This document shows positions 12,690 through 42,173 of a DNA stretch of 64,000 bases, in pieces. The position numbers and the translations under genes are program-made. Below the pieces are notes generated by a model, which was not told the origin of the DNA, searched no databases, and saw only the letters and a list, made by a program, of their open reading frames with translations. The DNA comes from Flavobacteriales bacterium (GTDB taxonomy: Bacteria; Bacteroidota; Bacteroidia; Flavobacteriales_C; GCA-002722245), in the NCBI GenBank assembly GCA_947444925.1, contig CANFBW010000001.1:29823-93822 (forward strand). Direction: 5' to 3'. Every line of letters starts with the position of its first letter. Position 1 is the first letter of the stretch.

Positions 12690-15323
12690 TTGAAAAAAAA
12701 GTATATTTTGAGCGAGCAGCCGAGCAAAGATAAAAATGAAACGCCATTAATGAAGCAATACAATGGCGTGAAGGAAAAGTATCCTGACGCCTTGGTGTTG
12801 TTTCGTGTTGGAGATTTCTATGAGACTTTTGGTGAAGATGCTGTAAAGACTTCTAAAATATTAGGTATTGTATTGACCAAGCGATCCAATGGAACCGCTT
12901 CTGAAGTGGCATTGGCAGGGTTTCCGTACCATTCCTTAGAGACGTATTTGCCTAAATTGGTAAAAGCCGGTCAGCGTGTAGCTGTGTGTGATCAATTGGA
13001 AGATCCTAAAATGACCAAGAATATTGTCAAACGTGGTGTTACCGAGGTGGTAACACCAGGTGTGGCGATCAGCGATAGGGTGTTGGAGCATAAAAGCAAT
13101 AACTATTTAGCGAGTGTTTACATAGAAAAAACTAGAGCTGGATTGGCTTTGGTTGATATTAGCACAGGTGAATTTTATGTGACGGAGGGAGAGTTTGGAT
13201 TTATCTCGAAAACATTAAATAGTTTTTTGCCCAAAGAAGTGCTCTTTCAAAAAAATAAGATAGAACGCTTTACTGAGTTGTTTGGTGGTCGCTATTATAC
13301 CTATGGATTGGAAGATTGGGTGTACAGCGCAGATTATGCAAAGGAGCAAATTCAAAAGCAATTTGAAACCGATAGTTTGAAAGGGTATGGCATCGACAAA
13401 GAACCTTTGTCGGTTATTGCCGCTGGCGCCATATTGCATTACTTGCATTACAACCAGCAGGATAAATTGGCGCACATCAACAAGATTGCAAAGATTGTAA
13501 GCGATGATTATGTGTGGCTTGATCCATTCACGATTCGCAATTTAGAATTGGTGTATTCGCCAAATCCTGGCGCTATCACTTTGCTTGATGTGATTGATCA
13601 AACCCTCACCCCAATGGGTGGTCGGATGTTGCGCAAATGGATGGTGTTGCCATTGAAAGACAAAGATAAAATCAATTACCGACATGCATTGGTTGGACAT
13701 TTGATTGAACATAAAAGCGTCAGTGCAGAAATAAGAAAAGTGCTCCACAATATTTCGGATCTTGAACGCATTGCCTCGAAAATAGCAATGGTTCGTGTTT
13801 CTCCCCGTGAAATGTTGCATTTGAAGTTTTCTTTGCGCTGCATCGAAGAATTAAAGCAACACAACACATCAGCGAATACTGAGTTTAAAATACTGCTCGA
13901 TGAAATGCAAGTGCTCTTGCCTTTTGTAGAGAAAATTGAAAAAATATTGTATGCCGATGCACCCGCTGTAATCGGTAAGGGACGCTTGATTGCCGATGGT
14001 GTTCATGCAGAATTGGATGAGTATCGAAAGTTGTCTACGGATTCGAAAAACTATTTGCTCGACATTCAAAAGAGAGAAATTGACAGTACCGGAATTTCTT
14101 CTTTGAAAATTGCATTCAACAATGTTTTTGGCTACTATATTGAAGTGCGCAATACACACAAAGATAAGGTGCCCGATACTTGGATACGCAAGCAAACACT
14201 GGTGAATGCTGAGCGGTACATCACCGAGGAATTAAAGGTGTTCGAAACAAAAATTTTGCAGGCCGAAGACAAGATCAATGAAATTGAATTTGCGCTTTTT
14301 TCTGGCTTGGTATCCGAAGCTGCTGACCACATCGCGGCGCTTCAAAAAAATTCCGCTTTGATTGCCACACTTGATTGTTTGGCTGGTTTCGCCAAGCAGG
14401 CAGTGGAGTTTGATTACGTGCGGCCAGAGGTAGATGATTCGTTGGTGATAGACATCAAACTTGGTCGCCATCCTGTGATTGAGAAAAATTTGGCAGTGGG
14501 TGTAAAATATGTGCCTAACGATATTTATCTCGATGAAAAAGAGCAGCAAATCATTATGGTTACTGGTCCCAATATGTCGGGTAAATCGGCGTTGTTGCGA
14601 CAAACAGCATTGATTGTTTTGATGGCACAAATTGGCTCATACGTGCCAGCGAAAAAAGTGCGTATGGGCGTTGTTGACAAGGTGTTCACGCGTGTGGGCG
14701 CATCCGACAATATTTCCACCGGCGAATCTACTTTTATGGTGGAGATGAATGAAACGGCAAATATTTTAAATAATTTATCGGAACGATCTTTGATTTTATT
14801 AGATGAAATTGGCCGCGGTACAAGCACCTACGATGGTATTTCTATTGCGTGGTCGATTGCCGAATACATCCATCAATATCCATTGTTTAAACCTAAAACG
14901 TTGTTTGCTACACATTACCACGAGCTGAATGAAATGACGAATATTTTTCCGCGCGTTAAAAACTTTAATGTGTCGGTAAAAGAGATTGAGGGCAAAATAA
15001 TTTTCTTGCGAAAACTCGCTGCTGGTGGCAGTGAACATAGTTTTGGTATTCACGTGGCGAAATTGGCGGGACTGCCAAAATTGGTGATTGCAAATGCAAA
15101 TACGGTGTTGGAACGTTTAGAGAAACAGCGTGAAGGCGGCAATGATTTACGCGAAAAAATTAAACCAGAAGCGACTTCTGGAATGCAGTTGAGTTTTATT
15201 CAACTCGACGATCCGGTGCTGCAAGAAATTCGAGAAGATTTAACCCGTTTGAATATCAATACACTTACACCTGTGGAGGCATTGATGAAATTGAGTGAAA
15301 TAAAAAAACGATTGGGTGACTAA
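12690..15323 (+). CDS. mutS: DNA mismatch repair protein MutS
   Basis: TPLMKQY...FRVGDFYETFGEDA N-terminal domain. Walker A GPNMSGKS. The start is TTG at 12690; an alternative in-frame ATG (MKQY) lies at 12753. Confidence 0.9.
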   Translation: MKKKYILSEQPSKDKNETPLMKQYNGVKEKYPDALVLFRVGDFYETFGEDAVKTSKILGIVLTKRSNGTASEVALAGFPYHSLETYLPKLVKAGQRVAVCDQLEDPKMTKNIVKRGVTEVVTPGVAISDRVLEHKSNNYLASVYIEKTRAGLALVDISTGEFYVTEGEFGFISKTLNSFLPKEVLFQKNKIERFTELFGGRYYTYGLEDWVYSADYAKEQIQKQFETDSLKGYGIDKEPLSVIAAGAILHYLHYNQQDKLAHINKIAKIVSDDYVWLDPFTIRNLELVYSPNPGAITLLDVIDQTLTPMGGRMLRKWMVLPLKDKDKINYRHALVGHLIEHKSVSAEIRKVLHNISDLERIASKIAMVRVSPREMLHLKFSLRCIEELKQHNTSANTEFKILLDEMQVLLPFVEKIEKILYADAPAVIGKGRLIADGVHAELDEYRKLSTDSKNYLLDIQKREIDSTGISSLKIAFNNVFGYYIEVRNTHKDKVPDTWIRKQTLVNAERYITEELKVFETKILQAEDKINEIEFALFSGLVSEAADHIAALQKNSALIATLDCLAGFAKQAVEFDYVRPEVDDSLVIDIKLGRHPVIEKNLAVGVKYVPNDIYLDEKEQQIIMVTGPNMSGKSALLRQTALIVLMAQIGSYVPAKKVRMGVVDKVFTRVGASDNISTGESTFMVEMNETANILNNLSERSLILLDEIGRGTSTYDGISIAWSIAEYIHQYPLFKPKTLFATHYHELNEMTNIFPRVKNFNVSVKEIEGKIIFLRKLAAGGSEHSFGIHVAKLAGLPKLVIANANTVLERLEKQREGGNDLREKIKPEATSGMQLSFIQLDDPVLQEIREDLTRLNINTLTPVEALMKLSEIKKRLGD

Positions 15324-15413
15324 TTCAGTCTGTTTTTTTCTGCCTTTCATCGATTTAAGGTTGACTCGCTTTACAATTCTCCTTATCTTCGACCAATATT
15401 AAAAATCAGGGGT

Positions 15414-18400
15414 ATGAGTGAGAGAATTAGGGCGGTTTGTGAAGGTTTCATGAGGAAGAGTTGTGTTCTAAAGGCAGTTGCTTTTTTATGTTTGTCTTTT
15501 CCATCTTTTTCTCAAACAAACTTCACCTGGTCGGCCACTGCAGCTTCTTCCAATTGGAATACCAGTGCCAACTGGAGTCCGAATGGAACACCACTTTCCA
15601 CCGATAACGTAGTTATTGTAAATTCAGCCAATATTCCTGTATTGCCTGGAAATTCTTCGGTCAACAATTTCACCATGACTTCCGGAAGTATTGATTTGGG
15701 AGCCAATACCCTCACGATTAACGGTACAGCAATTTTTACGGCAGGAACGCTCAACAACGGAACCATAGCCCCAAGTGGTTCGGCAGTTACTTGTACTGCA
15801 AGTACTTTCAATACTACTGTTAATGCAGTATGCGCTGCGGTGACTTTGAACGGCGGCACATTTAACGCTGTTACTACAATTGAAAAAACAGGTGCTTCAA
15901 ACAATACCGGTAATGGAGGTTGTACTTTCAATGCTGCCACAAATATCATAAACAGCGGCACTACTATACTGCGCATGGCCAATACTACTGCCGATATTTA
16001 CAATCAAAATGTGACCTTCACCAACACGGGTTCTAGTTATATTGATGTGGGTTATGGAGCAGGAACAACGCAGTTGAACGGAGATGTGTATGTGAATTCA
16101 ACTTCGGGTACCGGGGTGCGTTTCGGACAAGGATCGGGATTGGTGAATTTAGCTTCAGGAAAAACAGTGAATGTTGGAGGTACAGGATTTTCTGCCGGTG
16201 CGCTATACTTTAGAAACTTTACACAAACAGGATCAACAGCACAAAGTCTGGATTTCACAGGAACTGCAATATTGTATTTTCAATCAGGATCTACATTCAA
16301 TGCTAATATCAGCATGGTGGCTCCCCAAATTTATTTGAACGGAACTACTTTCAACGGTACGGTCTCTTTAGAAAAAAACGGAGCTACTAACAATGCAGGT
16401 ACGGGAGGAAATGCATTTAATGCAGCAACTACTCTGGCCTTGAGCGGAAGTGGATATTTCATGACGGGTAACGGAAATGCCGATGTTTTTTCTGCGCCGC
16501 TGACTTTAAATAATACCGGAACTGCAATTATTCATATTGCTTATGCTACGGCTACAGCAACCATTAGTGATAATATTGTAGTGACTTCCGCATCTTCGGG
16601 AGGTGTTGCTTTCGGAAGCAATGGCGGTGCAGTAAATTTCGCGTCAGGAAAAACGATCACCGTTGGAGGTGCAGGATTTTCAGGTTCGGGAACATTGTTG
16701 CTTAAAAACTTTACTCAAAACGGATCCACTGCTCAAACTCTTACCCTTACAGGAACATCAGTATTAACTATTGGTTCGGGATCAACTTTTAATGGAAATG
16801 TAAATTTCATCTCGCCACAAATTTATTTGAATGGTTGCACTTACAATGGTACTGTGACTATGGAAAAAACAGGAGCAACAAACAATGCTTGTACTGGTAA
16901 TAATACTTTTAATGGAGTAGTATCATTTATAAATAGTGGTTCGGGAAATTTGCGTTTGGCAAATACCAATGGTGATGTTTTCAATCAAACACTTACTTTA
17001 ACCAATATCGGCAGAAGTTATATTGATATCGCCTACGGTGCAGTAGCAGGAAGTTCTTTGAATGAAAATGTAATAGTGAATTCAACAGGAGGAACGGGGA
17101 TTCGTTTCGGGCAGGGGGCAGGAACAGTAACCCTGGCTGCGGGAAAGACAGTAACGGTGGGCGGAACAGGATATAGTGCCGGGGATTTGAAATTCAGAAA
17201 TTTTACGCAAACAGGAGCTACCGCTCAGAGCTTTACTTTAACAGGAACTGCTATTATTTATTTTGAAACCGGAGCCACTTTCAATGGAGCTGTAACAGCT
17301 TTGGCTCCTCAGATTTATTTAAACGGAACAACTTTTAACGGGACGACTTATATTGAAAAGACAGGTGCAACAGGGAATACAGGCTTGGGAGGAAATACTT
17401 TTAACGGAGTAACTATTTTGAAAAACAGCGGAACTGCCAACATGATTTCGGGAAATACTACTGCCGACACTTACAACAACGATCTTACTTTAACGGCCGC
17501 CAACACGGGTTCCATTTATCTCGCCTATGTTTCTGCAGGAACTGTTTTCAATGGAAATATTGTTGTGAATTCAGCTTCATCGGGAGCGATTTATTTAGGA
17601 AATGGTGCTTCTTGCAGCTCTACTCTGGCGTCGGGAAAAACGGTAACAATAGGAGGAAGCGGATTTTCAGGATCGGGAGTTTTGCAATTTAAAAACTTTA
17701 CGCAAACAGGAGCAACTGCTCAAGCACTAACATTAACAGGGACTTCAACGCTGAGCTTACTCGCAGGAAATACTTTCAATGGCAATGTTACTTTTATTGC
17801 GCCTCAGGTTTTATTGAGCGGAACAACCTACAACGGCACAGTGAGCATTGAAAAAAATGGTGCAACGAATAATGCCGGCGTTGGTGGAAATACTTTTAAC
17901 AATACAACTTCATTGACTTTAAGTGGTTCAGGTTATTTCATGAGTGGCAGCGGAAATGCAGATGCTTTCAATGGAGTTTTAACAGTCACGAATGCGGGAA
18001 CAGCCAATATTCATTTGGCTTACGCAACTGCACCGGCTTCATTCAACGAGAACATTGTAGTGAATGCTACTAACATCGGAGGAATTTATTTTGGAAACAA
18101 TGGAGGGTCATCTACGTTGGCATCGGGAAAAACAATAACAATAGGCGGTTCAGGATTTTCTTCTTCAGCACTTTTGGTTTTGAAAAACTTTACACAAACA
18201 GGATCCACTGCTCAATCATTAACACTTACAGGAACAGCTACTTTAACCATTGGTGCTGGTACTACCTTTAATGGTAATGTTGATTTTACAGCGCCAATCA
18301 TTTTGATCAACGGTTGCACGTACAATGGAACAGCTGCATTTAATCGAACAGGTGCAGGAACCAATCAAAGCAGCGGTGGAAATACTTTCAATGCGGCGGT

Positions 18401-20744
18401 TGCTTTTACCAATAGTGGTTCAGGAATTTTTTACATCGATTATACAGGGAGTGATGTTTTCAACGACAATATTATTGTGAATTCTACAGGTGGAAGTGAT
18501 GTGCGTTTTGGAGCAAGCACAGGTTCTGCAACACTCGCAGCGGGTAAAACAATTGCGATTGGAACAGGCGGCTTTACTTCGGGCGGTTTGTACTTAAAAA
18601 ATTTCACGCAAACAGGATCCGCCGCACAAAGCCTCACACTCACCGGAACTGCTGCTTTGTATTTTCAAACTGGATCAACTTTCAATGGAAATTTAATAGC
18701 TGTTTCTCCTCAGGTTTATTTGAACGGTTCTACTTTTAACGGAACAACTACTATCGAAAAAAATGGCGCAACAAACAATGCGGGTGCCGGTGGAAATACT
18801 TTTAACGGAACAACTACTTTAACATGCAGCAGCAACGGATATTTCATGACGGGTAACGGAACTGCCGATGTTTTCAGCGACCTTACTGCTACCAGCACCG
18901 GAACAGGAATTTTGTATGTGGCCTATGCTACAGGAAGTTCTTCTTTTAATGGAAATATTGTGGTGAGTAGTTCGAATACTGCCGGAGTGTATTTCGGATC
19001 AACCAGCGGTACAAGTACTTTAGCCAGTGGAAAAACGATTACAGTAGGCAGCGGATTTTCTTCGGGAATATTATTGCTGAAGGGGATTACACAAAGTGGA
19101 TCAACTGCGCAAAGTATAACATTAACAGGAACTGCTACTTTAACTGTCGGTTCTGGCGCTACCTTTAACGCTGACGTAACTTTCACTGCTCCTCAGATTT
19201 TGTTGAATGGCTGTACTTTCAACGGAACAGCTACCATAGAAAAAAGCGGAGCAACAAATAATGCTTCTACTGGAAGCAATGTTTTTAATTCAACTACCAC
19301 TATCAAGAACAGCGGAAGTGGAATTTTATATTTAGGAAATACCAGCGGCGATGATTTTAACGGTAACGTTACTTTCATTCAAACCGGCGCCGGTGCTTTA
19401 TACCCTGCATACAACAGCACTTCTACTTTCTCAGGAAATATTTCTACAACAGGAACCTCTACTGCTATTACTTTTGCTTCGGCGGCTACAGGAAGAGTAA
19501 ATATTGACGGAGGTACGCAATCCATCTCAGGTTCATCTGCGCAAACACTAATTATAAAAAGATTAACGGTTTCAGGAGGGGGAACTTTAACTTTGAATGT
19601 TCCTGTCAACATTAGTACTGGCGGTGATTTAAGTATGACGAGTGGTACTGTAGTAACTACATCCACCAACATTTTAACGCTACAAGATGAAAGCATAACT
19701 TCTACTATCGGGAATTCAGGAAGCTATGTAAATGGTCCGCTAGCGTACACGATGTCGAATAACGGCGCAAGTGTCTTATATTTCCCACTGGGTAAAGGAA
19801 GTGATTGGCGACCGATAGCGCTTACGCCTACGCATAACGCAGCAACTGCTTACACATACACTGCCGAGAGATTCAATGCTTCAGCCGATGCTTTTGGATA
19901 TACTTTGCCTGCATCAGTGGATAAAGTTTCAACATACAGTTACTGGGACATCAGTCGCACAGCATCTTCTTCTGCAAACCTAACGAGTGCTGTGGTTACC
20001 TTTTATTATGGAAGCAGCGGTACCAGTGATCACGTGTTGGATTACACAGGCTTAACACTTTGCAAATCCAATGGTGCCGGGGCGTGGATAGATATCGTTG
20101 GAACTGCAACAGCGAACAACGATGGCAGTATTTCTTCAGGGGCATTTACTTCTTTCAGTAAATTTACTTTGGCGAATTTGGTGGGATCAGGCAATCCATT
20201 ACCGGTTGAATTGCTTGATTTCACAGCTGTTTTAAATAAAGGGAAAGTAGATTTGAACTGGTCTACGGCCACGGAAATCAACAACGATTATTTTACGCTG
20301 GAGCGTTCGGCTGATGGAAAAGAATTTACTGCTTTGTCACAAATTAGTGGTGCAGGCAACAGTCATTCACTTTTAAAATATTCATTTGTTGATGAAAATC
20401 CTTTGCAGGGACTTTCTTACTACCGCTTGAAACAAACAGATTTTAATGGAGCTTTTACTTATTCAAAAGTTCAGTTGGTCAACCAAAACGCAGCCCCGTC
20501 TATTCTTGCTTATTCAATAGTTTCTGATGAAATTCATTTACAATTGACAGGTTATTCGGCCAACGAAAAAGTGAGTGTTGTGATTTATGATTTGAGTGGC
20601 AGAGAAATTTATAGTTCATCGTTAATACTTGATGCAAAAGGAAACAACAACATGAATATTGCCAATGATTTTGCTCAAGGAATTTATTCTTTGAATGTTA
20701 TTTCCGCACAGCAGGCCCTTACTCAGAAATTAGCGCTGCGTTAA
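15414..20744 (+). CDS. Giant repetitive cell-surface protein with a type-A T9SS C-terminal sorting domain (adhesin-like)
   Basis: 1776 aa, rich in G/T/S/N. Eight repeats of about 165 aa, followed by a LPVELLDFTAV..NWSTATEINNDYFTLERSADGKEF module. The terminal segment (~80 aa, IYDLSGREIY...GIYSLNVISAQQALTQKLAL) matches the Por_Secre_tail pattern. The probable real start is the in-frame Met at about 15450, which gives the signal peptide MRKSCVLKAVAFLCLSFPSFSQ. Confidence 0.8.
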   Translation: MSERIRAVCEGFMRKSCVLKAVAFLCLSFPSFSQTNFTWSATAASSNWNTSANWSPNGTPLSTDNVVIVNSANIPVLPGNSSVNNFTMTSGSIDLGANTLTINGTAIFTAGTLNNGTIAPSGSAVTCTASTFNTTVNAVCAAVTLNGGTFNAVTTIEKTGASNNTGNGGCTFNAATNIINSGTTILRMANTTADIYNQNVTFTNTGSSYIDVGYGAGTTQLNGDVYVNSTSGTGVRFGQGSGLVNLASGKTVNVGGTGFSAGALYFRNFTQTGSTAQSLDFTGTAILYFQSGSTFNANISMVAPQIYLNGTTFNGTVSLEKNGATNNAGTGGNAFNAATTLALSGSGYFMTGNGNADVFSAPLTLNNTGTAIIHIAYATATATISDNIVVTSASSGGVAFGSNGGAVNFASGKTITVGGAGFSGSGTLLLKNFTQNGSTAQTLTLTGTSVLTIGSGSTFNGNVNFISPQIYLNGCTYNGTVTMEKTGATNNACTGNNTFNGVVSFINSGSGNLRLANTNGDVFNQTLTLTNIGRSYIDIAYGAVAGSSLNENVIVNSTGGTGIRFGQGAGTVTLAAGKTVTVGGTGYSAGDLKFRNFTQTGATAQSFTLTGTAIIYFETGATFNGAVTALAPQIYLNGTTFNGTTYIEKTGATGNTGLGGNTFNGVTILKNSGTANMISGNTTADTYNNDLTLTAANTGSIYLAYVSAGTVFNGNIVVNSASSGAIYLGNGASCSSTLASGKTVTIGGSGFSGSGVLQFKNFTQTGATAQALTLTGTSTLSLLAGNTFNGNVTFIAPQVLLSGTTYNGTVSIEKNGATNNAGVGGNTFNNTTSLTLSGSGYFMSGSGNADAFNGVLTVTNAGTANIHLAYATAPASFNENIVVNATNIGGIYFGNNGGSSTLASGKTITIGGSGFSSSALLVLKNFTQTGSTAQSLTLTGTATLTIGAGTTFNGNVDFTAPIILINGCTYNGTAAFNRTGAGTNQSSGGNTFNAAVAFTNSGSGIFYIDYTGSDVFNDNIIVNSTGGSDVRFGASTGSATLAAGKTIAIGTGGFTSGGLYLKNFTQTGSAAQSLTLTGTAALYFQTGSTFNGNLIAVSPQVYLNGSTFNGTTTIEKNGATNNAGAGGNTFNGTTTLTCSSNGYFMTGNGTADVFSDLTATSTGTGILYVAYATGSSSFNGNIVVSSSNTAGVYFGSTSGTSTLASGKTITVGSGFSSGILLLKGITQSGSTAQSITLTGTATLTVGSGATFNADVTFTAPQILLNGCTFNGTATIEKSGATNNASTGSNVFNSTTTIKNSGSGILYLGNTSGDDFNGNVTFIQTGAGALYPAYNSTSTFSGNISTTGTSTAITFASAATGRVNIDGGTQSISGSSAQTLIIKRLTVSGGGTLTLNVPVNISTGGDLSMTSGTVVTTSTNILTLQDESITSTIGNSGSYVNGPLAYTMSNNGASVLYFPLGKGSDWRPIALTPTHNAATAYTYTAERFNASADAFGYTLPASVDKVSTYSYWDISRTASSSANLTSAVVTFYYGSSGTSDHVLDYTGLTLCKSNGAGAWIDIVGTATANNDGSISSGAFTSFSKFTLANLVGSGNPLPVELLDFTAVLNKGKVDLNWSTATEINNDYFTLERSADGKEFTALSQISGAGNSHSLLKYSFVDENPLQGLSYYRLKQTDFNGAFTYSKVQLVNQNAAPSILAYSIVSDEIHLQLTGYSANEKVSVVIYDLSGREIYSSSLILDAKGNNNMNIANDFAQGIYSLNVISAQQALTQKLALR
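15845..19680 (+). repeat. Intragenic tandem repeat with a period of about 490 bp, 8 copies, alternating A and B types
   Basis: Repeat boundaries fall at the recurring (A/S)PQ(I/V)(Y/L)LNG(T/C)T(F/Y)NGT..EK(N/T)GATNN motif. These boundaries sit near 15845, 16320, 16811, 17305, 17800, 18290, 18700 and 19190. A units contain SGSGYFMxGxGNAD. B units contain NSGSG...(S)YID(I/V)(A/G)YG. Confidence 0.75.
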
Positions 20745-20746
20745 TT

Positions 20747-20938
20747 TTAAAAGAATTTCATCATTTTTACGATGGCAAAAAAAGCTAGAAAAAAAATCAG
20801 GATGATGATCATTGTTTTGGATGCACCCTTGAAAATCTTAGGGTTGTTGCGTATGTCCTTGCGGTAGGCAAAGATGAGTCCGCCTATAAAAACAACTATA
20901 AAAAAGAGAATAAAATACAATCGACCTTCTGTAAACAT
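20747..20938 (-). CDS. Small hypothetical membrane protein (63 aa, two predicted TM helices)
   Basis: Hydrophobic ORF only. Its stop abuts the giant gene's stop with a 2-nt gap, in convergent orientation. There is no homology evidence. Confidence 0.3.
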   Translation of the reverse strand: MFTEGRLYFILFFIVVFIGGLIFAYRKDIRNNPKIFKGASKTMIIILIFFLAFFAIVKMMKFF

Positions 20939-21014
20939 GAACTAAAGGTAAGTTCAAAATAAGTTTTCACAAAATGTTTTTATCTTGAGCTCAAAATACA
21001 TTTAAAGATCGGCT

Positions 21015-21467
21015 ATGTTTACGCAAATTGTATCTAAAAAATATCTTCGCACACTGGCGGCTTTGCACGCTGTGTTGGCTTTTGGACAATTGTTGTTTTT
21101 GGCCATTGCGCTGATCGGGAAAAATGGACACAGTGTCGAGCAATCTCAAGCCGATACCAATCGTATGCTTCTTTTGATGGCTTTGTTGATGGTTGCGGGA
21201 AGTATTGCAGGTGGAATTTACATGCGCAAACGAAAAGTGCTTGAGATTCGAATGAATAATAATTTGCGCCAAAAGCTTGATGAGTACACCATTTCGCTCA
21301 TCATTCGTTTTGCTTTAATGGAAGTAGCATCTATTTTTTGTATTGTGGGCTATTTGTTTTCGTCCCATTACTTATTTGTTTTTTTTACGCTTGTAGTGTT
21401 GGTGTTTTTTGTTGTGGTTCGTCCTACTAAGGGCAATGTTTTGCGTGATTTAGATTTGATCGTTTAA
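21015..21467 (+). CDS. Hypothetical polytopic membrane protein
   Basis: 150 aa with three or four hydrophobic segments. It lies immediately upstream of the acyltransferase gene. Confidence 0.45.
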   Translation: MFTQIVSKKYLRTLAALHAVLAFGQLLFLAIALIGKNGHSVEQSQADTNRMLLLMALLMVAGSIAGGIYMRKRKVLEIRMNNNLRQKLDEYTISLIIRFALMEVASIFCIVGYLFSSHYLFVFFTLVVLVFFVVVRPTKGNVLRDLDLIV

Positions 21468-21479
21468 GCCAAAAAAAGA

Positions 21480-22529
21480 ATGAATCTCCTTTACTCCTTT
21501 TTGCATTTTTTGGTCAAAATCACCTTGCCTTTGTACTACCGTCGAGTGCACGTAAGTGGCATTGAAAACTTACCAAACGACAAACCAGTGTTGTTGGCGG
21601 TAAATCATCAAAATGCATTTTTGGATGCGGTTTTAGTGGTGTATCAATTGAATCGACAAGCTTATTTTTTAGCACGCTCTGATGTGTTTAAAAATCGTGT
21701 GGTTGGCAAAATATTGCGAAAGTTGAACATCGTACCCATTTACAGATCACAAGATGGTACTGGAGTAAAGAATAACGGAGAAGTTTTCAATTGGTGCTAC
21801 CACACTTTGTCAGAAAATAAGTGGGTGCTTATTTTTCCCGAAGGAACCTGCGAACCTCAGCAGCATATGCATCCGTTGAAAAAGGGAATGGCACGTATTG
21901 CATTGGGAGCAGTTGAAAAGTATCCCGATTTGGATTTGCAAATTGTGCCTGTCGGGCTCAATTACTCTGAGCACATGGGTTTTCGTTCAGATGTTTGGAT
22001 TGATTATGGAACGCCAATATCTGTGCGCGATATTGCACTCAGTGACAAAGGATCGGGTGAAAAAATCAATGCCTTGACTGCTGCTGTTGAATTTGAATTG
22101 CGCAAAGTAGTGCTGCATCATGAAATGGAAGGTTATGCCGAAGCTGCGGAGGCGATGCGCCACAATATAGCGGCGCTGCGCCCGCAATCGGGCAGAACTT
22201 TGGTGGACATCAAGAAATCAGCGCTAAGCAGTGAAAAATCGTTTTCTGCAAAACCGAATTTTTGGCGCGAGCTGTTTTCATTTCCCTTGTTATTGGTGCA
22301 TCGTCCGCTCTATTTTGCCATAGATGCTATGGCGGCAAAGTTGACGGGAATGGATGCTTTTTTTCCTTCTGTGAAATATGGACTGTGTGCCTTGCTTTTT
22401 CCTTTTTATTGGCTGTTTTTGTCTCTGTTTCTTACTTATATGCTACAAGTACCCACTTTATTGGTGTTTCCGATCTGGTTGCTTTTTCCTGTAAGTTTGT
22501 GGGCAGGTCTAAAAATAAAAAAGGTTTAG
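21480..22529 (+). CDS. PlsC-like (lysophospholipid / 1-acyl-sn-glycerol-3-phosphate) acyltransferase with a C-terminal membrane extension
   Basis: The HX4D motif is VNHQNAFLD. FPEGT is the second acyltransferase block. The C-terminal ~90 aa is hydrophobic. Confidence 0.75.
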   Translation: MNLLYSFLHFLVKITLPLYYRRVHVSGIENLPNDKPVLLAVNHQNAFLDAVLVVYQLNRQAYFLARSDVFKNRVVGKILRKLNIVPIYRSQDGTGVKNNGEVFNWCYHTLSENKWVLIFPEGTCEPQQHMHPLKKGMARIALGAVEKYPDLDLQIVPVGLNYSEHMGFRSDVWIDYGTPISVRDIALSDKGSGEKINALTAAVEFELRKVVLHHEMEGYAEAAEAMRHNIAALRPQSGRTLVDIKKSALSSEKSFSAKPNFWRELFSFPLLLVHRPLYFAIDAMAAKLTGMDAFFPSVKYGLCALLFPFYWLFLSLFLTYMLQVPTLLVFPIWLLFPVSLWAGLKIKKV

Positions 22530-27205: not shown

Positions 27206-28471
27206 ATGATGACAACTCTGCTTATTCTGGTCTTTGTAGTAGGCTATTTCGCTATCGCGTTTGAGCATCCTTTAAAAGTGGATAAGGCGGCAAGTGCTTT
27301 GCTGACGGGCGTGCTGTGTTGGACGATTTATATTTTCAGTTCCGGTAATGCTCAGTTTTCTGAAAATGTGACGGGTGAATTGGGGCATGTTTTTGGAGAA
27401 ATTTCGGGCATTTTGTTTTTTTTGCTGGGTGCGATGGTGATTGTTGAAATGGTGGATGCCTTTGAAGGATTTGCTATCATCACCAAAAGAATTTCGGCTA
27501 CTAACAAAGTGAAGTTGCTATGGGTTTTGGCACTGATCACTTTTTTTCTATCGGCTATTCTCGACAATCTAACCACCACTATTGTGATGATTTCACTACT
27601 GCGCAAATTGGTGGACGATAAAGACGATCGCTTGCTGTATGCTGGTGTTATTGTGATTGCCGCAAATGCCGGTGGCGCCTGGACGGTGACTGGTGATGTT
27701 ACCACAACAATGCTGTGGATTAAAGGAAAGATTTCGGCTGTCGCCATTATGAAAACGCTGTTCCTGCCAAGTTTGGCCTGTTTGCTGGTGCCTTTGGTAA
27801 TTCTGTCGTTTCGCATGAAGGGCGAAGTGCAGCGTCCGGTACTTATAGATGCTGAAGAAAACGCGATAAAACCTTTTCACAAAAACTTAGTTTTTGCGTT
27901 GGGTATTGGCGGTTTGCTTTTTGTGCCGATTTTTAAATCTGTTACGCACCTGCCTCCGTTTATGGGGATGCTTTTTTCCTTGGGTGTATTGTGGGTTGTG
28001 ACGGAAATTATCAATCCGAAAATGGACAGTGTTATGCGTTCGAGCACAAAAGTAGTGAGCGTATTAAAGAATATCGACAGCAGTAGTATTTTGTTTTTTC
28101 TCGGTATTTTGTTGGCAGTGGGTAGTTTGGGTAGTGCAGGATTGTTGATGGATTTGGCTCAAATGCTGGACGCCACAATTGGCGATAAGAATTCGATTGC
28201 AGTGGTGATTGGTTTTGCTTCGTCGGTGGTTGATAATGTGCCTCTAGTTGCTGCTGGTATGGAGATGTACAGTATGCCAATGGATGATCCTTTTTGGGAG
28301 TTTCTCGCGTATTGCGCAGGCACTGGTGGCAGTTGTTTGGTCATTGGTTCGGCTGCAGGAGTTGCGGCTATGGGTATGGAGAAAATGAATTTTTTATGGT
28401 ATCTCAAAAAATTTACTCCGCTTGCCATTGTTGGCTATTTGGCCGGTGTAGCGGTGTATGTTTTATTTTAA
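27206..28471 (+). CDS. NhaD/ArsB-superfamily Na+/H+ antiporter
   Basis: 421 aa with about 11-12 TM helices. The duplicated ILDNLTTT / VVDNVPLVAAG pattern is typical of the NhaD/ArsB ion-transporter superfamily. Confidence 0.75.
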   Translation: MMTTLLILVFVVGYFAIAFEHPLKVDKAASALLTGVLCWTIYIFSSGNAQFSENVTGELGHVFGEISGILFFLLGAMVIVEMVDAFEGFAIITKRISATNKVKLLWVLALITFFLSAILDNLTTTIVMISLLRKLVDDKDDRLLYAGVIVIAANAGGAWTVTGDVTTTMLWIKGKISAVAIMKTLFLPSLACLLVPLVILSFRMKGEVQRPVLIDAEENAIKPFHKNLVFALGIGGLLFVPIFKSVTHLPPFMGMLFSLGVLWVVTEIINPKMDSVMRSSTKVVSVLKNIDSSSILFFLGILLAVGSLGSAGLLMDLAQMLDATIGDKNSIAVVIGFASSVVDNVPLVAAGMEMYSMPMDDPFWEFLAYCAGTGGSCLVIGSAAGVAAMGMEKMNFLWYLKKFTPLAIVGYLAGVAVYVLF

Positions 28472-34635: not shown

Positions 34636-36357
34636 TTATTTGGTGCGTATAAAATTCTTTTTTGTTTCGTATGAAGGTACATCTAAATGCCAACGCTCTG
34701 TTCTTTCTGTGAAGCCCAAGTTGGCATAATGTTCTTTGACCATTTCATTTTTTGCGGTGGGCACATATTCTCCAATGATCGACGAATAGCATTTGTCTTT
34801 TGCAAATTCAACGATGCTATTAAGTACAAAATTTTCCATTCCACGTTTCAATACTCGGCAGCTCATAAACCATGAATCAATGAACAAGGTACTTGCGTTT
34901 TCTTTGCGTAGAATGACAACACAAATCAATCCATTGTCTCCAAATTTGTCATTTAAAGTAAATGAAAAAGTGAAGTGATCTTTAGAATTTGCCAGTTTTT
35001 CAATGTCCGCGTCGTCGTAACGCACGGTGCGCAGATTGAATTGATTCGAACGCTGAGAAAGCTGTGATACTCTGGGTGTATTGAATTTATTAAAGGATTC
35101 AACCAATGATAACATGTTTAAGCTTTTCAGAAAATCATCTTCATTGGTGAAGTTTTGTTGCACTCGGCTTCTTTGCGCCTCTACCTGGTACAACTGTGTT
35201 CTTTCAGTGTCTTCTTTGGAGAAAGAAGCGGTTTCAAAAAGGTTTAAGGTATAGAGATATTCCAAATATTCTGCAGGATCCTCTGGAAGTTCAGGGACAC
35301 AGATTTGAGGAATGTTTTCTCTAACGATGTTTCTTTCAAATGGATTGTCGTCGAGAAAAACCATAGAGTCAAAACCAATGTTCAATATTTTTTGAATTTG
35401 ACGGATATTGTCGGCTTTATTTTCCCAATTGGCAACAAAAACAGCAATGTCTTCGAGGTGTAGCACCATGTCGGGATGTTTTTCAAAAGGTTCTTTGGCT
35501 ACCGACTCAGTGTTTTTACTACACACCGCTATGATAATTCCTCTCTGTTTTAATTTTTTAATCCAATATTGAAATTCAGAAAAAGCTTTTCCTATTCCCA
35601 AAGCTCCAATTTGTATGTTTTCTAAGCCATCGTCACCAATGATTCCCCCCCACATGGTATTGTCTAAATCAACAATGAGACATTTTTTAAATTTGCCTTC
35701 TAGTGCTGAAATGAGCGCTATTGTTTTCGCTGCAACTATTGGAAGTGCATCAATACTCAAAACCATTTCTGTATTGATGTATATAGCGCTTTGAAATAAG
35801 AATTGTTTTCCGAAGTTGTTTTGAATAGAGGAGATGTCACACAAATAAAAATTGTTGGTTTTGGCTGCATACAGCATCAACTCGTAATTCAGCTTTCTAA
35901 GTTGAAACAAGAAAGAAGATTCTGTTTTGTTGGCGAAATTTCCAAAAACCGCATCTTCAATTTCAGTGTAATTGTAGTAGATTATTTTTGCATTGAGTTT
36001 TTGTGTGAGAACAGAAAAACTGTTTTTAATGATTTCGAGTTCATTGGCTGCCAGCAAAGGGTGTTGCTCTACTTTGTATTTATTGTATTTTCCAAGCAGT
36101 TTATGTGCCGATTGAAATACAAGGATGATTTCGGGTGCAAAAGAATACAGTTCAGAATTGGGGTCGAAAATTTGTCTTTCAATTTGATTGAAGTCGGCTT
36201 CCCATATGTCTAAATTCAATCCTTCGTCGAACGCTGTTCCTCGCAATGCTTGAATTAAAAACTGTGTTGCACTATCTCCCAGCACTGCTATTTTAATGGT
36301 CTTCAGTTTTGAGAAATCCTTCTTTAAATTCTTTTTTAACTGAGAAAAGTCTTTCAT
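34636..36357 (-). CDS. FkbH-like protein (HAD-superfamily IIIC phosphatase-like loader with GNAT-like C-terminal domain)
   Basis: 573 aa. HAD motif I is LIVDLDNTMWGG. The N-terminal IKIAVLGDSATQF is GDS-like. The C-terminal ~170 aa are GNAT-fold-like. The length and domain order match FkbH/HAD-IIIC family proteins. Confidence 0.7.
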   Translation of the reverse strand: MKDFSQLKKNLKKDFSKLKTIKIAVLGDSATQFLIQALRGTAFDEGLNLDIWEADFNQIERQIFDPNSELYSFAPEIILVFQSAHKLLGKYNKYKVEQHPLLAANELEIIKNSFSVLTQKLNAKIIYYNYTEIEDAVFGNFANKTESSFLFQLRKLNYELMLYAAKTNNFYLCDISSIQNNFGKQFLFQSAIYINTEMVLSIDALPIVAAKTIALISALEGKFKKCLIVDLDNTMWGGIIGDDGLENIQIGALGIGKAFSEFQYWIKKLKQRGIIIAVCSKNTESVAKEPFEKHPDMVLHLEDIAVFVANWENKADNIRQIQKILNIGFDSMVFLDDNPFERNIVRENIPQICVPELPEDPAEYLEYLYTLNLFETASFSKEDTERTQLYQVEAQRSRVQQNFTNEDDFLKSLNMLSLVESFNKFNTPRVSQLSQRSNQFNLRTVRYDDADIEKLANSKDHFTFSFTLNDKFGDNGLICVVILRKENASTLFIDSWFMSCRVLKRGMENFVLNSIVEFAKDKCYSSIIGEYVPTAKNEMVKEHYANLGFTERTERWHLDVPSYETKKNFIRTK

Positions 36358-36476
36358 TAATAGATGGAAAATTGAAATGTTAGATCATAAAAGTAGCTTT
36401 TGAATTTGAGAATCACAAAGAAACAAGGGTGTTAGCTATATGTTTGTTGTTGTCAATTTCCAAAATAAGCAACGGA

Positions 36477-37430
36477 TCAATGCTGGCTTAAATGAGATAT
36501 AGCGTTTTTAAAACTAGGAAAAGCCATTATTTTCTTTGTAAACCACTCTCCTCCGCATTTGTTTAAGTGACCATTGTCGGCATACAGTGAGTCGGGAAGG
36601 TCACCTACTTGTTCTTTAGAGCAGAAAAGGTGTCCGTTTTTTTTGATGATGTCACTCACCCGTAAGTCATGTGCTTTTATATATGCTGCAACGGTTTTGT
36701 TGTGGTATTTTTGATTTGGGGATGGCATATTTACATACAAAATGGTTATGTTTTTGCGCTTAAAATATGAGCACACTTTTTCAAGATAGACATAAGATTT
36801 TTCGACGCTTCTGTATTCTTTTACAGCGGAGATTTTTCGTTGCTCGTTAATGTATGTGCCGCCATTGATGTCTAAGGATTGATTGCCGCTATTTTTTTTT
36901 GTTTTCTTTAATTCGTCATTGATCCAACAGGTGTATTTGATCAATCCATCAAGGTTTCCTCCTTTTAAGTAGGAGTACTCGCAGAATGTACCAGTAAAAT
37001 ACAGATCTAATTCAAGCGATGAAGGAATGTTTTTTTCTTCGACCAGTGCTTCAGCAGTGTATAAGGATTGACAGTCGATCCACAACAATAGTTTTGGACG
37101 AATGTGATTTGCAATAAATTCCGAAGTCCGGTCAATATCCCGAGCTGTGAAATGCCATGATGCAAAATTGTAGTAATGAAGATTTGGCGGTATCGATTTC
37201 AGTAGAACGGAAGTGTTTAAGTCATAATATGTAAGAGAACTTCCTATGCCGAGGATGTCAATTTCTTTAACTTGTGTGTGTTTTAAGTGCCACATTTTTA
37301 CGTCAAAAGAACCACTATCAGATAAGCGTGGTGCGATATTTTTTTGTTCAAGGTAAATGCGGTACAATACCATTGATCCATAGGTCAATAGCGTGAAAAT
37401 TAATATTTTATATAGCGTTTCTTTTTTCAA
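36477..37430 (-). CDS. Membrane-anchored SGNH-like protein, DltD/AlgJ-type partner of the MBOAT
   Basis: The ORF track starts inside the MBOAT gene. A TTG at 37430..37428 overlapping the MBOAT stop gives MKKETLYKILIFTLLTYGSMVLY, a signal anchor. DILGIGSSLTYYD is a candidate Ser-nucleophile block. The position directly downstream of the MBOAT mirrors DltB-DltD, PatA-PatB and AlgI-AlgJ pairs. Confidence 0.5.
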   Translation of the reverse strand: MKKETLYKILIFTLLTYGSMVLYRIYLEQKNIAPRLSDSGSFDVKMWHLKHTQVKEIDILGIGSSLTYYDLNTSVLLKSIPPNLHYYNFASWHFTARDIDRTSEFIANHIRPKLLLWIDCQSLYTAEALVEEKNIPSSLELDLYFTGTFCEYSYLKGGNLDGLIKYTCWINDELKKTKKNSGNQSLDINGGTYINEQRKISAVKEYRSVEKSYVYLEKVCSYFKRKNITILYVNMPSPNQKYHNKTVAAYIKAHDLRVSDIIKKNGHLFCSKEQVGDLPDSLYADNGHLNKCGGEWFTKKIMAFPSFKNAISHLSQH

Positions 37431-38869
37431 AATTGAAAATAGATGAATTGTTGATGTTGCATATTTCCAAAAAGTATGATCATCCAAATTGCAAATAAGT
37501 ATACTGGCCATCTAAGTGATTTAGAAGACCTAAAGAAGCGGGCATAAATGTCATGTCGGATGTCTAGCCATTCCAATGCAATCAAAAGGATTATTAACAT
37601 GAAGTCAATAAATAATCCTTTTGTCCCAATGTCATAGTTAACATTGATAGAAAGTCCTTTGATATTTAGTGTGAAGATGGTTTTGAAAGCACTCATTGCC
37701 TGACCAAAATTCTTTGCTCTAAATAAGATAAAAGCGAGTGCGACAAAGGAAAATGTGATTCCCGTTGCTAAGAAATTGAAAAGGTGGGTGTTGGTTTTGT
37801 TTTTGAGTTGTTTTCTTTTTTTCTTGGTTAAGATTTCTACGGAAAGGTAAATTCCGTGAACAAATCCATAACAAATAAAAGCCCAACTGGCGCCATGCCA
37901 TAAACCACTTAGTGTGAAAATTATCATAACCCCTAGTATTGGCGCCCATTTTCCTGCATCTCGCATGTTGATTACAATGGGAGTATATATATAATTGGTG
38001 AACCATGTGGTGAGTGATATGTGCCACTTTCTCCAAAATTCGGTTAGACTTTTACTGAAAAATGGCTTATTAAAATTGCTTACCAATTCAAATCCCATAA
38101 CCCTGGCAGTTCCCTTCGCTATTAAACTGTATCCCGCGAAATCACAATATACTTGTATTGTGAAAAAGAGAGTGGCTATTACTATTGGGAAAAAGGAATA
38201 TTGTGTTAGGTCGTTAAAAACGGTGTTGACATAAGTTGCCAGATTATCAGCGATTACTATTTTTTGCATAGCGCCCCAAAGCATCAGTTGTAAGCCATAC
38301 GTTATATCTTGCGTTTGAACGCCAGGATGGGTTTTAAGTTGAGGTAATAGGTGATTTCCTTTTTCTATTGGGCCTGCAACGAGTTGTGGGAAAAAGCAAA
38401 CAAATAGAGCGAAAATTCCAAGGTGTTTTTCTGCCTTTAATTCTCCTTTATAGACATCAATTAGGTAGCCTGTAATTTGAAATACATGAAATGAAATACC
38501 AATCGGCAAAGCCCATTTTAAGTAGGGAAAATGATGAAAAATATTGAGTCCTGTCAATGCACTGTTTATGTTGTCAATAGTAAAATCGTAATATTTAAAA
38601 ATGAACAATTGACCAAAATTACATACGAGACCTATTGTGAAAAGAACTTTCCTTTTATGAATTGAATTACTAGATTCCATGCCTAAGCTACATAGGTAGC
38701 TGATCACAATGGTAGCCAGTAATAGTAGTAGGTAGTCAAATCGCCAGCACGAATAGAAATAAATACTCGCTAGGAGTAGAGGGATCCACTTGTATTTTGA
38801 AGGGGTGCTTAAAAAAACAATCGCAACGGCAATAAAAAAAAACAGGTAGTCTACGGAATTAAAAAGCAT
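37427..38869 (-). CDS. MBOAT-family membrane-bound O-acyltransferase (DltB/AlgI/PatA-like)
   Basis: 480 aa and polytopic. The conserved His region is FWRKWHISLTTWFTNYIYTPI. The overall MBOAT pattern includes WHGASW. Confidence 0.85.
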   Translation of the reverse strand: MLFNSVDYLFFFIAVAIVFLSTPSKYKWIPLLLASIYFYSCWRFDYLLLLLATIVISYLCSLGMESSNSIHKRKVLFTIGLVCNFGQLFIFKYYDFTIDNINSALTGLNIFHHFPYLKWALPIGISFHVFQITGYLIDVYKGELKAEKHLGIFALFVCFFPQLVAGPIEKGNHLLPQLKTHPGVQTQDITYGLQLMLWGAMQKIVIADNLATYVNTVFNDLTQYSFFPIVIATLFFTIQVYCDFAGYSLIAKGTARVMGFELVSNFNKPFFSKSLTEFWRKWHISLTTWFTNYIYTPIVINMRDAGKWAPILGVMIIFTLSGLWHGASWAFICYGFVHGIYLSVEILTKKKRKQLKNKTNTHLFNFLATGITFSFVALAFILFRAKNFGQAMSAFKTIFTLNIKGLSINVNYDIGTKGLFIDFMLIILLIALEWLDIRHDIYARFFRSSKSLRWPVYLFAIWMIILFGNMQHQQFIYFQF

Positions 38870-38984
38870 TGTGCGTTTTTTTAATACCTATTAAAATCTT
38901 GATTTTTGTCGCGATAATCATGAAGTCATGTTGGTGCGCTAAAATAGTGGTTTTAATTGAAAACGAACAAACGTAAAATAAAAA

Positions 38985-39011
38985 CCCCTCAATTAAATTG
39001 AGGGGTTTTTT
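38985..39011. terminator. Bidirectional rho-independent terminator (cccctcaatttaattgagggg flanked by A- and T-runs)
   Basis: Perfect 8-bp GC-rich stem. On the minus strand it immediately follows the tRNA 3' end. Confidence 0.6.
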
Positions 39012-39012
39012 G

Positions 39013-39087
39013 TGGGAGCTATAGGATTCGAACCTATGACCCTCTGCTTGTAAGGCAGATGCTCTGAACCAGCTGAGCTAAGCTCCC
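39013..39087 (-). tRNA. tRNA-Val (anticodon UAC)
   Basis: The reverse complement folds as a cloverleaf: GGGAGCTTAGCTCAGCTGGTTCAGAGCATCTGCCTTACAAGCAGAGGGTCATAGGTTCGAATCCTATAGCTCCCA. The acceptor stem is GGGAGCT/AGCTCCC, the anticodon loop is CTTACAA, and the T-arm is GGTTCGAATCC. Confidence 0.85.
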
Positions 39088-39170
39088 TTAGTGGGCTGCA
39101 AATATAGAGGATATTTTACTTTACACAAATATTTTGCATTTTTTTTTCGGGTAAAATGAAAAAACTTTCT

Positions 39171-41294: not shown

Positions 41295-41390
41295 TTTAAT
41301 ACACAGTGCTTTACGGTCAACACACAATTGTTTCCGGTAAAGCGATCGCTAAAGTAAGAAAAAGCAAAGATAGTTCTGCTGTAAAAGCAA

Positions 41391-42134
41391 TCAATATCGA
41401 GGTTTGGAGTGTTTTCCGGTTAGTTTAAAATAACCTTTCATGTACTTTCCTTTGATGCCCGCTCTGAACAAAGAGTAGATTCCTGCAAGAAAAAGTTCAG
41501 TGACACTGCGTGGCGTTGCATTGTAAAATCTTCGCGCAGAGGTCTTAACGTAAGTGCTTCTGATTAATTTAGAACGATAGTAAGGTGCGGCATCCACCCC
41601 GTATTTATAGTCTTCAAAAATAATTCCGTTGTTAAATCCGCCAATTTTATTGTGAATTTCTTTTGTTGAAAAGATGCAACAACCGTGCACTGCGGGTTTA
41701 AACCAACGCAAAACAGTAAGATAAATGTTGGAGTAGGCCCAGTATAGAAAACGGTAGTATAAGTTTTTTTCAGCGGCGTAAATTTTACTTCCTCCGACTT
41801 TAATGCCTCTTCGCACAATTTCGTCCATTGCTGTCTTCAGGAAATTTGCAGGAAGCACCACATCTGCGTCAAGAAAAAGAAGGTTTTCATAGATCGCGTT
41901 GTCGGCACCAATGTTTCTTTGCAGAGATATGTTGCGCAGATTGTCAAGTGCGATGAAGTTTATTGGCATGCCGTGTTCGTTTTTGAAACGAGCTGCTACT
42001 TCTGCTGTTTTGTCGTCAGAGCCTGCGTCTGATATAACAATTTCATATACAACACCTTTTTGTATGCGAATGCTTTCCAATAATTTCGGAAGGTAGTTTT
42101 CTTCGTTGAGCGTACAAATTACAATTGATACCAT
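41391..42134 (-). CDS. Family 2 glycosyltransferase
   Basis: MVSIVICTLNEENYLPKLLESI...ISDAGSDDKT...LFLDADV reads as the GT2 DxD-type Rossmann N-terminal domain. Confidence 0.8.
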   Translation of the reverse strand: MVSIVICTLNEENYLPKLLESIRIQKGVVYEIVISDAGSDDKTAEVAARFKNEHGMPINFIALDNLRNISLQRNIGADNAIYENLLFLDADVVLPANFLKTAMDEIVRRGIKVGGSKIYAAEKNLYYRFLYWAYSNIYLTVLRWFKPAVHGCCIFSTKEIHNKIGGFNNGIIFEDYKYGVDAAPYYRSKLIRSTYVKTSARRFYNATPRSVTELFLAGIYSLFRAGIKGKYMKGYFKLTGKHSKPRY

Positions 42135-42173
42135 CCCCTAAATATAATGTTAGTGTTGTAGTTTTGTTTTGAA

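Follow-up and report, generated by a model that had tools for sequence, protein, structure and literature searches.

The gene at positions 15414..20744 (+) of a stretch of 64,000 nucleotides (nt) from a Flavobacteriales bacterium (contig CANFBW010000001.1; this whole stretch is called the window throughout) codes for a type IX secretion system (T9SS) cargo protein. The best explanation of the data, which we hold to be rather probable, is a secreted and probably surface-attached rod, exported by the T9SS, whose beta-helical body would serve as an adhesin or fibril and whose modules form an old but dynamic locus. The open reading frame (ORF) is intact, opens with ATG and yields a product of 1776 amino acids (aa), exactly as given in a first-pass annotation made from the sequence. 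The gene is a recombination mosaic, segments of which have been exchanged between species-level lineages.

Architecture and predicted fold

Modules were delimited by anchoring on a conserved E-K-x-G-A motif. The parts of the protein are listed here with their evidence, which includes hidden Markov models (HMMs), alignments and structure prediction by AlphaFold2 (AF2), the local confidence of which is given as the predicted local distance difference test (pLDDT).

15414..15512 (+): predicted Sec signal peptide, aa 1-33; sequence read by eye
15513..15881 (+): N-terminal beta-helix cap, aa 34-156; AF2 pLDDT 90-96, 16 short strands
15882..16370 (+): module R1, B type, aa 157-319; unit HMM and alignment, 24 strand segments by AF2
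16371..16862 (+): module R2, A type (SGSGYFMTGNGNAD), aa 320-483; unit HMM and alignment, AF2
16863..17354 (+): module R3, B type, aa 484-647; unit HMM and alignment, AF2
17355..17849 (+): module R4, intermediate, closer to A, aa 648-812; identities, and A HMM outscoring B HMM
17850..18341 (+): module R5, A type, aa 813-976; unit HMM and alignment
18342..18755 (+): module R6, B type with a 26-aa internal deletion, aa 977-1114 (138 aa)
18756..19238 (+): module R7, A type, aa 1115-1275; alignment
19239..19736 (+): degenerate terminal module R8, predicted helix end, aa 1276-1441; AF2 pLDDT 85-96
19737..20201 (+): all-beta sandwich-like domain, aa ~1442-1596; AF2, kept in 120 of the 120 best homologs, no Pfam match
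20202..20468 (+): FN3/Ig-like 'LPVELL...YYRLKQTD' domain, aa ~1597-1685; beta-sandwich by AF2, tandem FN3 by Foldseek
20469..20744 (+): T9SS type A C-terminal sorting domain and stop codon, aa ~1686-1776; TIGR04183, AF2

The putative export signals are located at the two ends. The N-terminus, read by eye, has a basic n-region (MRKS) and a hydrophobic core (CVLKAVAFLCLSFPSF) followed by S-F-S|Q, and probable signal cleavage at ...SFS|QT would leave an N-terminal Gln on the mature protein; the junction x-x-Q-T-x-[YF]-[TS]-W is kept in the orthologs P0002, P0004, P0005 and P0006. At the C-terminus the T9SS type A model TIGR04183 scored 24.7 bits against a cut-off of 23 (aa 1713-1773), in agreement with the type A sorting domain of the first-pass annotation. 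This domain was the only part of the whole protein matched in Pfam and NCBIfam, which gave no model for the 164-aa module. Only type A passed among the sorting-domain models, type C giving a weak, sub-threshold match (14.1 against 40), and the type B sorting and SprB-repeat models of Pfam and NCBIfam gave no match at E < 1.

The fold of the body was predicted with AF2 on aa 34-647, from an alignment of 12 rows that combined homologs with modules of the window itself (alignment A2, model me06304ace8a1). The model, with a mean pLDDT of 94.6 and a predicted template modelling score of 0.87, contains short strands only, at 23-25 segments per module, which on a three-sided helix gives about eight coils of ~20 residues per module. 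It displays stacked three-strand coils forming three parallel sheets, and a single, continuous right-handed parallel beta-helix is predicted for the body. The last ~100 aa of the cap resemble the C-terminal part of a module (tblastn of aa 58-156 against the R6 region: 37% identity, E 8e-5). Structural matches of the helix model gave figures of 22.1 for Vag8, 19-21 for phage tailspikes, 18.7 for pertactin, 17.6 for HMW1, 16.7 for Hap and 17-18 for PL6 lyases and epimerases. Foldseek recovered the same fold class without significance, the best match being Ag43 at E 0.065, and a module profile run against Protein Data Bank (PDB) sequences gave spurious matches only (designed Tako8 proteins and an antibody). 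The earlier suggestion of a parallel beta-helix or fibre is thus upheld, as a prediction, by AF2 and by the structural matches.

A second model, of aa 1276-1776, was made from a 21-row alignment (A1; model mf33d69e1aa91; pLDDT 86.4) and shows in succession the helix end (R8), the all-beta domain, a short low-confidence linker, the LPVELL beta-sandwich and a seven-stranded sandwich. The last one coincides with the sorting domain, its strands lying at aa 1696-1775 with pLDDT about 85-90. Foldseek aligned this model with tandem FN3/Ig domains and with PorU (6za2), which itself carries a C-terminal domain; these matches are generic and give no functional clue. The LPVELL module that had been placed ahead of the sorting domain is therefore supported by the predicted beta-sandwich and by its FN3 matches.

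The composition of the body agrees with the G/T/S/N-richness noted before (T 16.8%, G 16.0%, N 10.8%, A 10.1%, S 9.7%), with charged residues at 5.2%, and the patterns TxT and TxTxT are enriched over composition (z 3.6 and 5.1). The many N-x-T/S triplets, in contrast, do not exceed expectation, since 36 sequons were observed against 32 expected (z 0.9), and an enrichment for N-glycosylation was rejected. The Bacteroidota O-glycosylation motif D[ST][AILVMT] has 0 occurrences in the 1776 residues despite abundant Ser and Thr, which may be due to chance because Asp is rare.

The module belongs to a broad family. A homolog search returned 716 proteins, of which the named ones are all from Bacteroidota (Cyclobacteriaceae, Puia, Bacteroidia), mostly annotated as hypothetical or as 'T9SS type A sorting domain-containing protein'. 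Each homolog contains 5-15 modules, and 120 of the 120 best ones retain a C-terminal region of about 470-540 aa. A seven-module profile searched against 1.84 billion proteins matched 810 representatives of 50%-identity clusters (677 at E <= 1e-10), the matches listed showing almost always many matched stretches per protein. The pattern YYRL[KR]Q[TV]D[FYK] was found in at least 600 stretches of GTDB species genomes, and the FN3-like C-terminal motif is very common in GTDB Bacteroidota, with the cultured Marivirga, Hymenobacter, Imperialibacter, Agaribacillus and Parachryseolinea among the matches listed, which also include family members in metagenome-assembled genomes (MAGs) of Ohtaekwangia. 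The window's own species was absent among the matches listed in a contig profile search with the C-terminal alignment. A literature search on T9SS, beta-helix, tandem repeats and adhesin found no paper on this module family. The family is unnamed and of a known kind, that of T9SS-exported beta-helical surface or adhesin-like proteins.

Divergence and number of the modules

Repeat copies, detected as families of 7-8 copies, start at spacings of 489, 492, 492, 495, 492, 414 and 483 nt, and the array comprises seven full modules of 164 aa and one degenerate module, R8. The eight tandem repeats of ~490 bp reported by the first-pass annotation are therefore correct in their periodicity (414-495 nt) but not in the eighth copy, which has a protein identity of 31-37% to the other modules and matches the module HMM at positions 1-125. 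The copies had also been described as near-identical, and this does not hold. Pairwise identities among R1-R7 are 46-67% for the protein and 54-68% for the codon-aligned DNA, the longest exact DNA word common to any two modules measures 9-25 nt, and Tandem Repeats Finder applied to positions 14000-22000 reported 0 arrays because the copies are too diverged. A DNA identity below 40% had been proposed as the mark of an ancient array; the values found lie above this limit, yet far from near-identity. As for the DNA motif GGAAC...GG, said to recur every ~490 bp, a single exact match exists (at 17325), and if up to three mismatches are allowed the gene contains 10 matches, the expectation for the whole window being 1.3. 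The motif encodes G-x-T-F-N-G, present about three times per module, and so does not mark the ~490-nt period.

The two module types that had been proposed to alternate are real clusters, but their order is not a strict alternation. The A cluster is formed by R2, R5 and R7 (protein identity 65-67%; motif SGSGYFM..G.AD) and the looser B cluster by R1, R3 and R6 (55-63%), while R4 is intermediate, its identity being 54, 60 and 56% with the A modules and 52, 54 and 49% with the B modules, and the resulting order is B-A-B-A'-A-B-A-(degenerate). A super-repeat of 980 bp present four times finds no support in the mean inter-module DNA identity, which amounts to 59.2, 61.6, 64.5, 56.7 and 64.0% at lags of one to five modules, that is, lower at lag 2 than at lag 3, and the longest inter-module DNA match sits at a spacing of 1479 nt, or three modules. 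The idea of a two-module evolutionary unit, failing in the window protein, finds no support in the wider family either: A and B HMMs left the majority of the modules of 120 homologs unclassified, and the adjacent classified pairs (AA 50, BB 28, BA 24, AB 20) contain no excess of alternation. Both observations indicate that the A/B scheme is local to the window's clade.

How the array changes in length could be followed in orthologs at the same site. The cargo gene begins 90 nt downstream of mutS (12690..15323), and three further orthologs, L001, L002 and L003, lie directly downstream of mutS as well, L001 and L002 with both flanks in common with the window and L003 with the upstream side only (Peptidase_S49 to mutS), other genes being found downstream. 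The module number of the close syntenic orthologs, the degenerate one included, is 8, 7 or 6. In L001, whose mutS has 95.3% DNA identity to that of the window, the open frame of 1448 aa (L001:5440-9786) lacks exactly 984 nt, equal to two modules, and the first module is a hybrid that resembles R1 over the first ~293 alignment columns and R3 over the rest, one switch fitting 129 of 149 informative sites. As judged from these sites, the loss is explained by one in-register B-with-B crossover, R1 x R3, and the removal of two modules in this way agrees with a pairing of like with like. The database entry for this protein, P0003 (1261 aa), starts at an internal Met, although the frame is open from an MSERIRAV start as in the window; a minus-strand ORF call at 5547-5993 of L001 has probably displaced the start. 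In L002, with a mutS 78.9% identical to that of the window and a protein of 1610 aa, the 483 nt of R7 are missing, with a single switch near a module boundary (122 of 147 sites fit).

The position of each module has been retained in more distant orthologs as well. The proteins of L003 (1590 aa), P0006 (1613 aa) and P0007 (1612 aa), 65-71% identical to the window protein, carry R1-R6 and R8, so that R7, present in the window and L001, is absent from L002, L003 and P0006/P0007. Each module of these orthologs is closest to the module at the same position of the window protein, and the 26-aa deletion of R6 is common to the orthologous modules of P0002, P0004, P0006 and P0007. Positional orthology down to 65-71% identity implies that the array is older than these lineages and that concerted evolution has not homogenised it, and it speaks against a recent expansion. 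The situation differs in P0005 (2122 aa, 53% identity to the window protein), the 10 modules of which cluster with each other over their positional matches, pointing to an expansion within the P0005 lineage, unlike the window's clade. Within the population no change was seen: the 90% cluster of the window protein holds five further distinct sequences, 99.8-99.9% identical and all of 1776 aa, and three separate samples and assemblers yielded the window allele again (ERZ19568519, ERZ27280191, ERR11485656).

These results bear on the view that the gene is a contingency locus, namely a present-day hotspot with frequent copy-number change within populations and the A+B pair as its unit, which is the reading put forward in the first-pass annotation. 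Copy number does differ between close syntenic orthologs, by one in-register crossover each, and one of the events spans exactly one two-module B-to-B interval. However, the modules are 54-68% identical, with exact words of at most 25 nt and no array in Tandem Repeats Finder, their positions are conserved in orthologs 65-71% identical, all six assemblies from one population (identity of at least 99.8%) give 1776 aa, the other indel is a single module, and alternation is not in excess in the wider family. We consider a contingency locus unlikely, and prefer to describe the length changes as rare events between lineages, as the compared sequences indicate.

Mosaic structure, presence and absence of the gene

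Identity between orthologs is very uneven along the gene. A comparison with L002 in 200-nt windows gave 94-100% identity over the tract of modules R1-R4, against about 79% in mutS:

15690..17890 (+): recombination tract, R1-R4, limits approximate; near-identical to the ortholog of L002, which is another species-level lineage

Modules R1-R4 are 95.9-99.4% identical in this pair, with synonymous divergences (dS) of 0.025, 0.168, 0.115 and 0.000, whereas the dS of mutS is 2.64 and the acyltransferase gene is 70% identical. From R5 to the central C-terminal domain the identity is 79-86%, and at the C-terminal end it falls to 69%, close to the flanks. The comparison with L001 gave another pattern. 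Against a dS of 0.235 for mutS, R5-R7 are 93-97% identical (dS 0.07-0.24), R1 and R4 just 82-88% identical (dS 0.73 and 0.47), and the end with the FN3-like and sorting domains (20214-20744) is 73% identical, with a dS of 1.22. A dS that falls one hundred-fold short of the value for the adjacent mutS, or exceeds it five-fold, cannot result from selection on the protein and indicates recombination with other alleles. The ratio of nonsynonymous to synonymous divergence, 0.02-0.32 across the segments with measurable dS against 0.02-0.03 for mutS, indicates relaxed purifying selection, with no segment-wide positive selection in these alignments.

The cargo gene may also be missing as a whole. Next to its stop codon lies a conserved hydrophobic ORF of 63 aa (window ~20747-20938, minus strand) that has no Pfam match in the precomputed tables. 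The loci L084, L085 and L086 lack the cargo gene, and there mutS meets the 63-aa minus-strand ORF with nothing in between (L084:12575-12837, L085:12571-12827, L086:3217-3483), the two genes overlapping in L085 and L086 at the stop end of the small ORF. The mutS genes of these loci have DNA identities to that of L002 of 85.0% (L084), 80.2% (L085) and 88.6% (L086), those of L084 and L086 being the closest to L002. The gene is carried at the same site by L002 and L003, although neither is closer to the window than the gene-less genomes are, and inspection of the gene-less junction revealed no remnant, mobile-element gene or direct repeat. The distribution would be produced either by repeated loss or by movement of the gene between lineages through recombination via the conserved flanks; that recombination between lineages does occur follows from the R1-R4 tract. 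The cargo gene is dispensable among related lineages. In L085 a different Por_Secre_tail protein, of 911 aa (L085:19084-21819), stands after a proline dehydrogenase gene, where the window has a CitMHS transporter (27206..28471); this is a second site of the neighbourhood at which T9SS cargo varies.

Both the mosaic and the presence/absence pattern could be artefacts of metagenome assembly or binning, in which contigs of co-occurring strains were joined. All the loci are MAG or metagenome contigs, and one sample, SRR14366772, is the source of both L002 and L003. On the other hand, the window allele was obtained unchanged (at least 99.8%) by three assemblers from separate samples, P0002 is present on three contigs, the gene-less state recurs in three unrelated assemblies, with mutS and the 63-aa ORF cleanly joined in each, and the unusually high C-terminal dS between the window and L001 is not producible by mixing those two strains. 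An artefact is accordingly quite unlikely for the window allele, and unlikely, less firmly so, for L002.

Proposed role, comparisons and surroundings

The route of the protein would be that of an ordinary T9SS cargo, the steps of which are taken from the established pathway (PMC11969387). The signal peptide would lead it by Sec into the periplasm, the type A sorting domain would direct it to the T9SS for passage via SprA/Sov and shuttling by PorV, and PorU would cleave off the sorting domain and link the new C-terminus to a lipopolysaccharide anchor. The exposed rod would consist of the N-terminal cap, seven modules of ~8 coils and the degenerate eighth one, the two beta-sandwich domains serving as a stalk by the sorting domain. 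Its equivalent helix faces, rich in Thr, Asn and Gly and almost uncharged, would provide multivalent low-affinity binding, and the number of modules would set the reach of the rod. Whole modules are gained or lost by in-register unequal crossover and segments swapped by homologous recombination, and the site between mutS and the small membrane-protein gene, which is fixed, either carries the whole gene or lacks it. By analogy, an adhesin or surface fibril is the most likely role.

Such a protein has counterparts in several known systems. EtpA, the two-partner secretion (TPS) adhesin of enterotoxigenic E. coli (PDB 8vba; PMC11463764), has repeat modules that act in the way proposed here; EtpA, however, is a proteobacterial protein exported by TpsB through an N-terminal TPS domain and N-glycosylated by EtpC, whereas here the export signal is a C-terminal T9SS one, the helix is succeeded by two beta-sandwich domains and the host belongs to Bacteroidota. 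No sequence-level homology to EtpA was detected, and TPS features were not seen either, the N-terminus having no Pfam or NCBIfam match and the adjacent genes including no transporter. The autotransporters Ag43, pertactin, Vag8, Hap and UpaB end in a beta-barrel translocator and do not have the 164-aa modules, in contrast with the sorting domain found here. With the gingipains of Porphyromonas gingivalis, which are T9SS type A cargo, the protein shares a C-terminal sorting domain of ~80 aa and a host from Bacteroidota, and its N-terminus reads by eye as a signal peptide. SprB and RemA of Flavobacterium johnsoniae, gliding adhesins exported by the T9SS, are like it in being very large and repetitive, SprB having a type B sorting domain and different repeats. 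The 164-aa module, lacking a Pfam or NCBIfam model and any solved-structure relative by sequence, distinguishes the present protein from other T9SS cargo. With contingency-type adhesins it has in common in-frame surface repeats and a copy number that differs between related genomes, but here the repeats, at about 490 nt, are long and, at 54-68% identity, old, and their changes are rare and occur between lineages.

Several points weigh against the proposed surface rod. The Pfam sorting-domain model PF18962 scored 21.6 against a cut-off of 27, below its gathering threshold, although a precomputed table assigns it to P0001 and most homologs. Pfam assigned the 20 larger ORFs of the window to housekeeping functions or left them unassigned, with T9SS machinery in 0 of 20, so that a T9SS in the host is assumed from taxonomy. 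The adhesin label derives solely from fold resemblance and architecture, with no characterised homolog. The length of the rod, roughly 30 nm at ~3.8 nm per module and 4.8 Å per coil, was obtained from strand counts instead of model coordinates. Finally, as all the compared genomes are metagenome assemblies, some of the mosaic observed with L002 could be simulated by a chimeric assembly.

The beta-helix would also be compatible with an enzyme active on polysaccharides (a lyase, hydrolase or epimerase) of the pectate-lyase-like superfamily, in which the modules extend the scaffold. This alternative is very improbable: no catalytic family was matched at E < 1 in Pfam or NCBIfam, the body has just 5.2% of charged residues and repeats equivalent modules, the helix is predicted to be regular and devoid of the long extra-helical loops that would form a cleft, and the best structural matches are adhesins (EtpA, Vag8 and pertactin). 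A protein binding ice or another ordered surface, by means of Thr/Asn ladders on a flat face in cold freshwater or groundwater, is possible but highly improbable, since strands alternating T with hydrophobic residues are common in any beta-helix, searches of Pfam, NCBIfam and PDB sequences found no similarity to known ice-binding families, and a family spanning Marivirga, Hymenobacter, Imperialibacter and Ohtaekwangia MAGs is not tied to one habitat.

The adhesin or fibril reading describes an object of an ordinary kind and does not overturn current understanding, the mosaic and the dispensability being its more notable aspects. T9SS cargo makes up much of the surface of environmental Bacteroidota, and most of the large proteins are labelled just 'T9SS sorting domain-containing protein'. 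What is new is a fold and a module definition for a family without a Pfam model (about 810 clusters), which could seed a family model, together with a clean natural case of a rod changing its length by whole-module crossovers. That a surface-protein gene beside a housekeeping gene is exchanged and dispensable marks it as a part of the flexible surface repertoire, probably exposed to phages or predators, that uncultured freshwater bacteria possess. It is possible, but rather doubtful, that the module defines a family of modular beta-helical 'rulers' in Bacteroidota and that in this freshwater, Flavobacteriales-like clade the gene is a horizontally exchanged surface cassette, as would be expected of a locus in an arms race with phages or grazers. 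If so, the length of the rod would be tuned by gain and loss of whole modules, and the rod might act as a phage receptor, for instance, or shield one.

The neighbours of the gene are mutS and genes for a SpoU methylase, an OmpA-family protein and an acyltransferase. A foreign base composition was considered and rejected, the G+C content of the cargo gene (41.6%) being equal to that of its flanks (mutS, 41.0%). A scan for sigma-70 promoters and terminators gave nothing exceeding shuffled controls, and elsewhere in the window there are no additional copies of the modules or of the C-terminal domains. The window MutS has its nearest relatives in MAG proteins that bear the names 'Bacteroidetes bacterium' (88%) and, at 86%, 'Flavobacteriales bacterium', the identity to the MutS of a Flavobacterium sp. 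being 62%; these names put the host in Bacteroidota, probably Flavobacteriales. Farther away, a run of lipid-related genes occupies 34636-43316 (-), with an FkbH-like gene, an unassigned ORF of 344 aa and genes for an MBOAT acyltransferase, a transporter of the MMPL family and a fatty-acid desaturase. At 57910-62163 (+) an ORF of 1417 aa, unrelated to the cargo gene, appears by eye to be a Bacteroidota hybrid two-component system, combining a periplasmic repeat region with a histidine kinase and a receiver domain and with a DNA-binding end of the AraC type.

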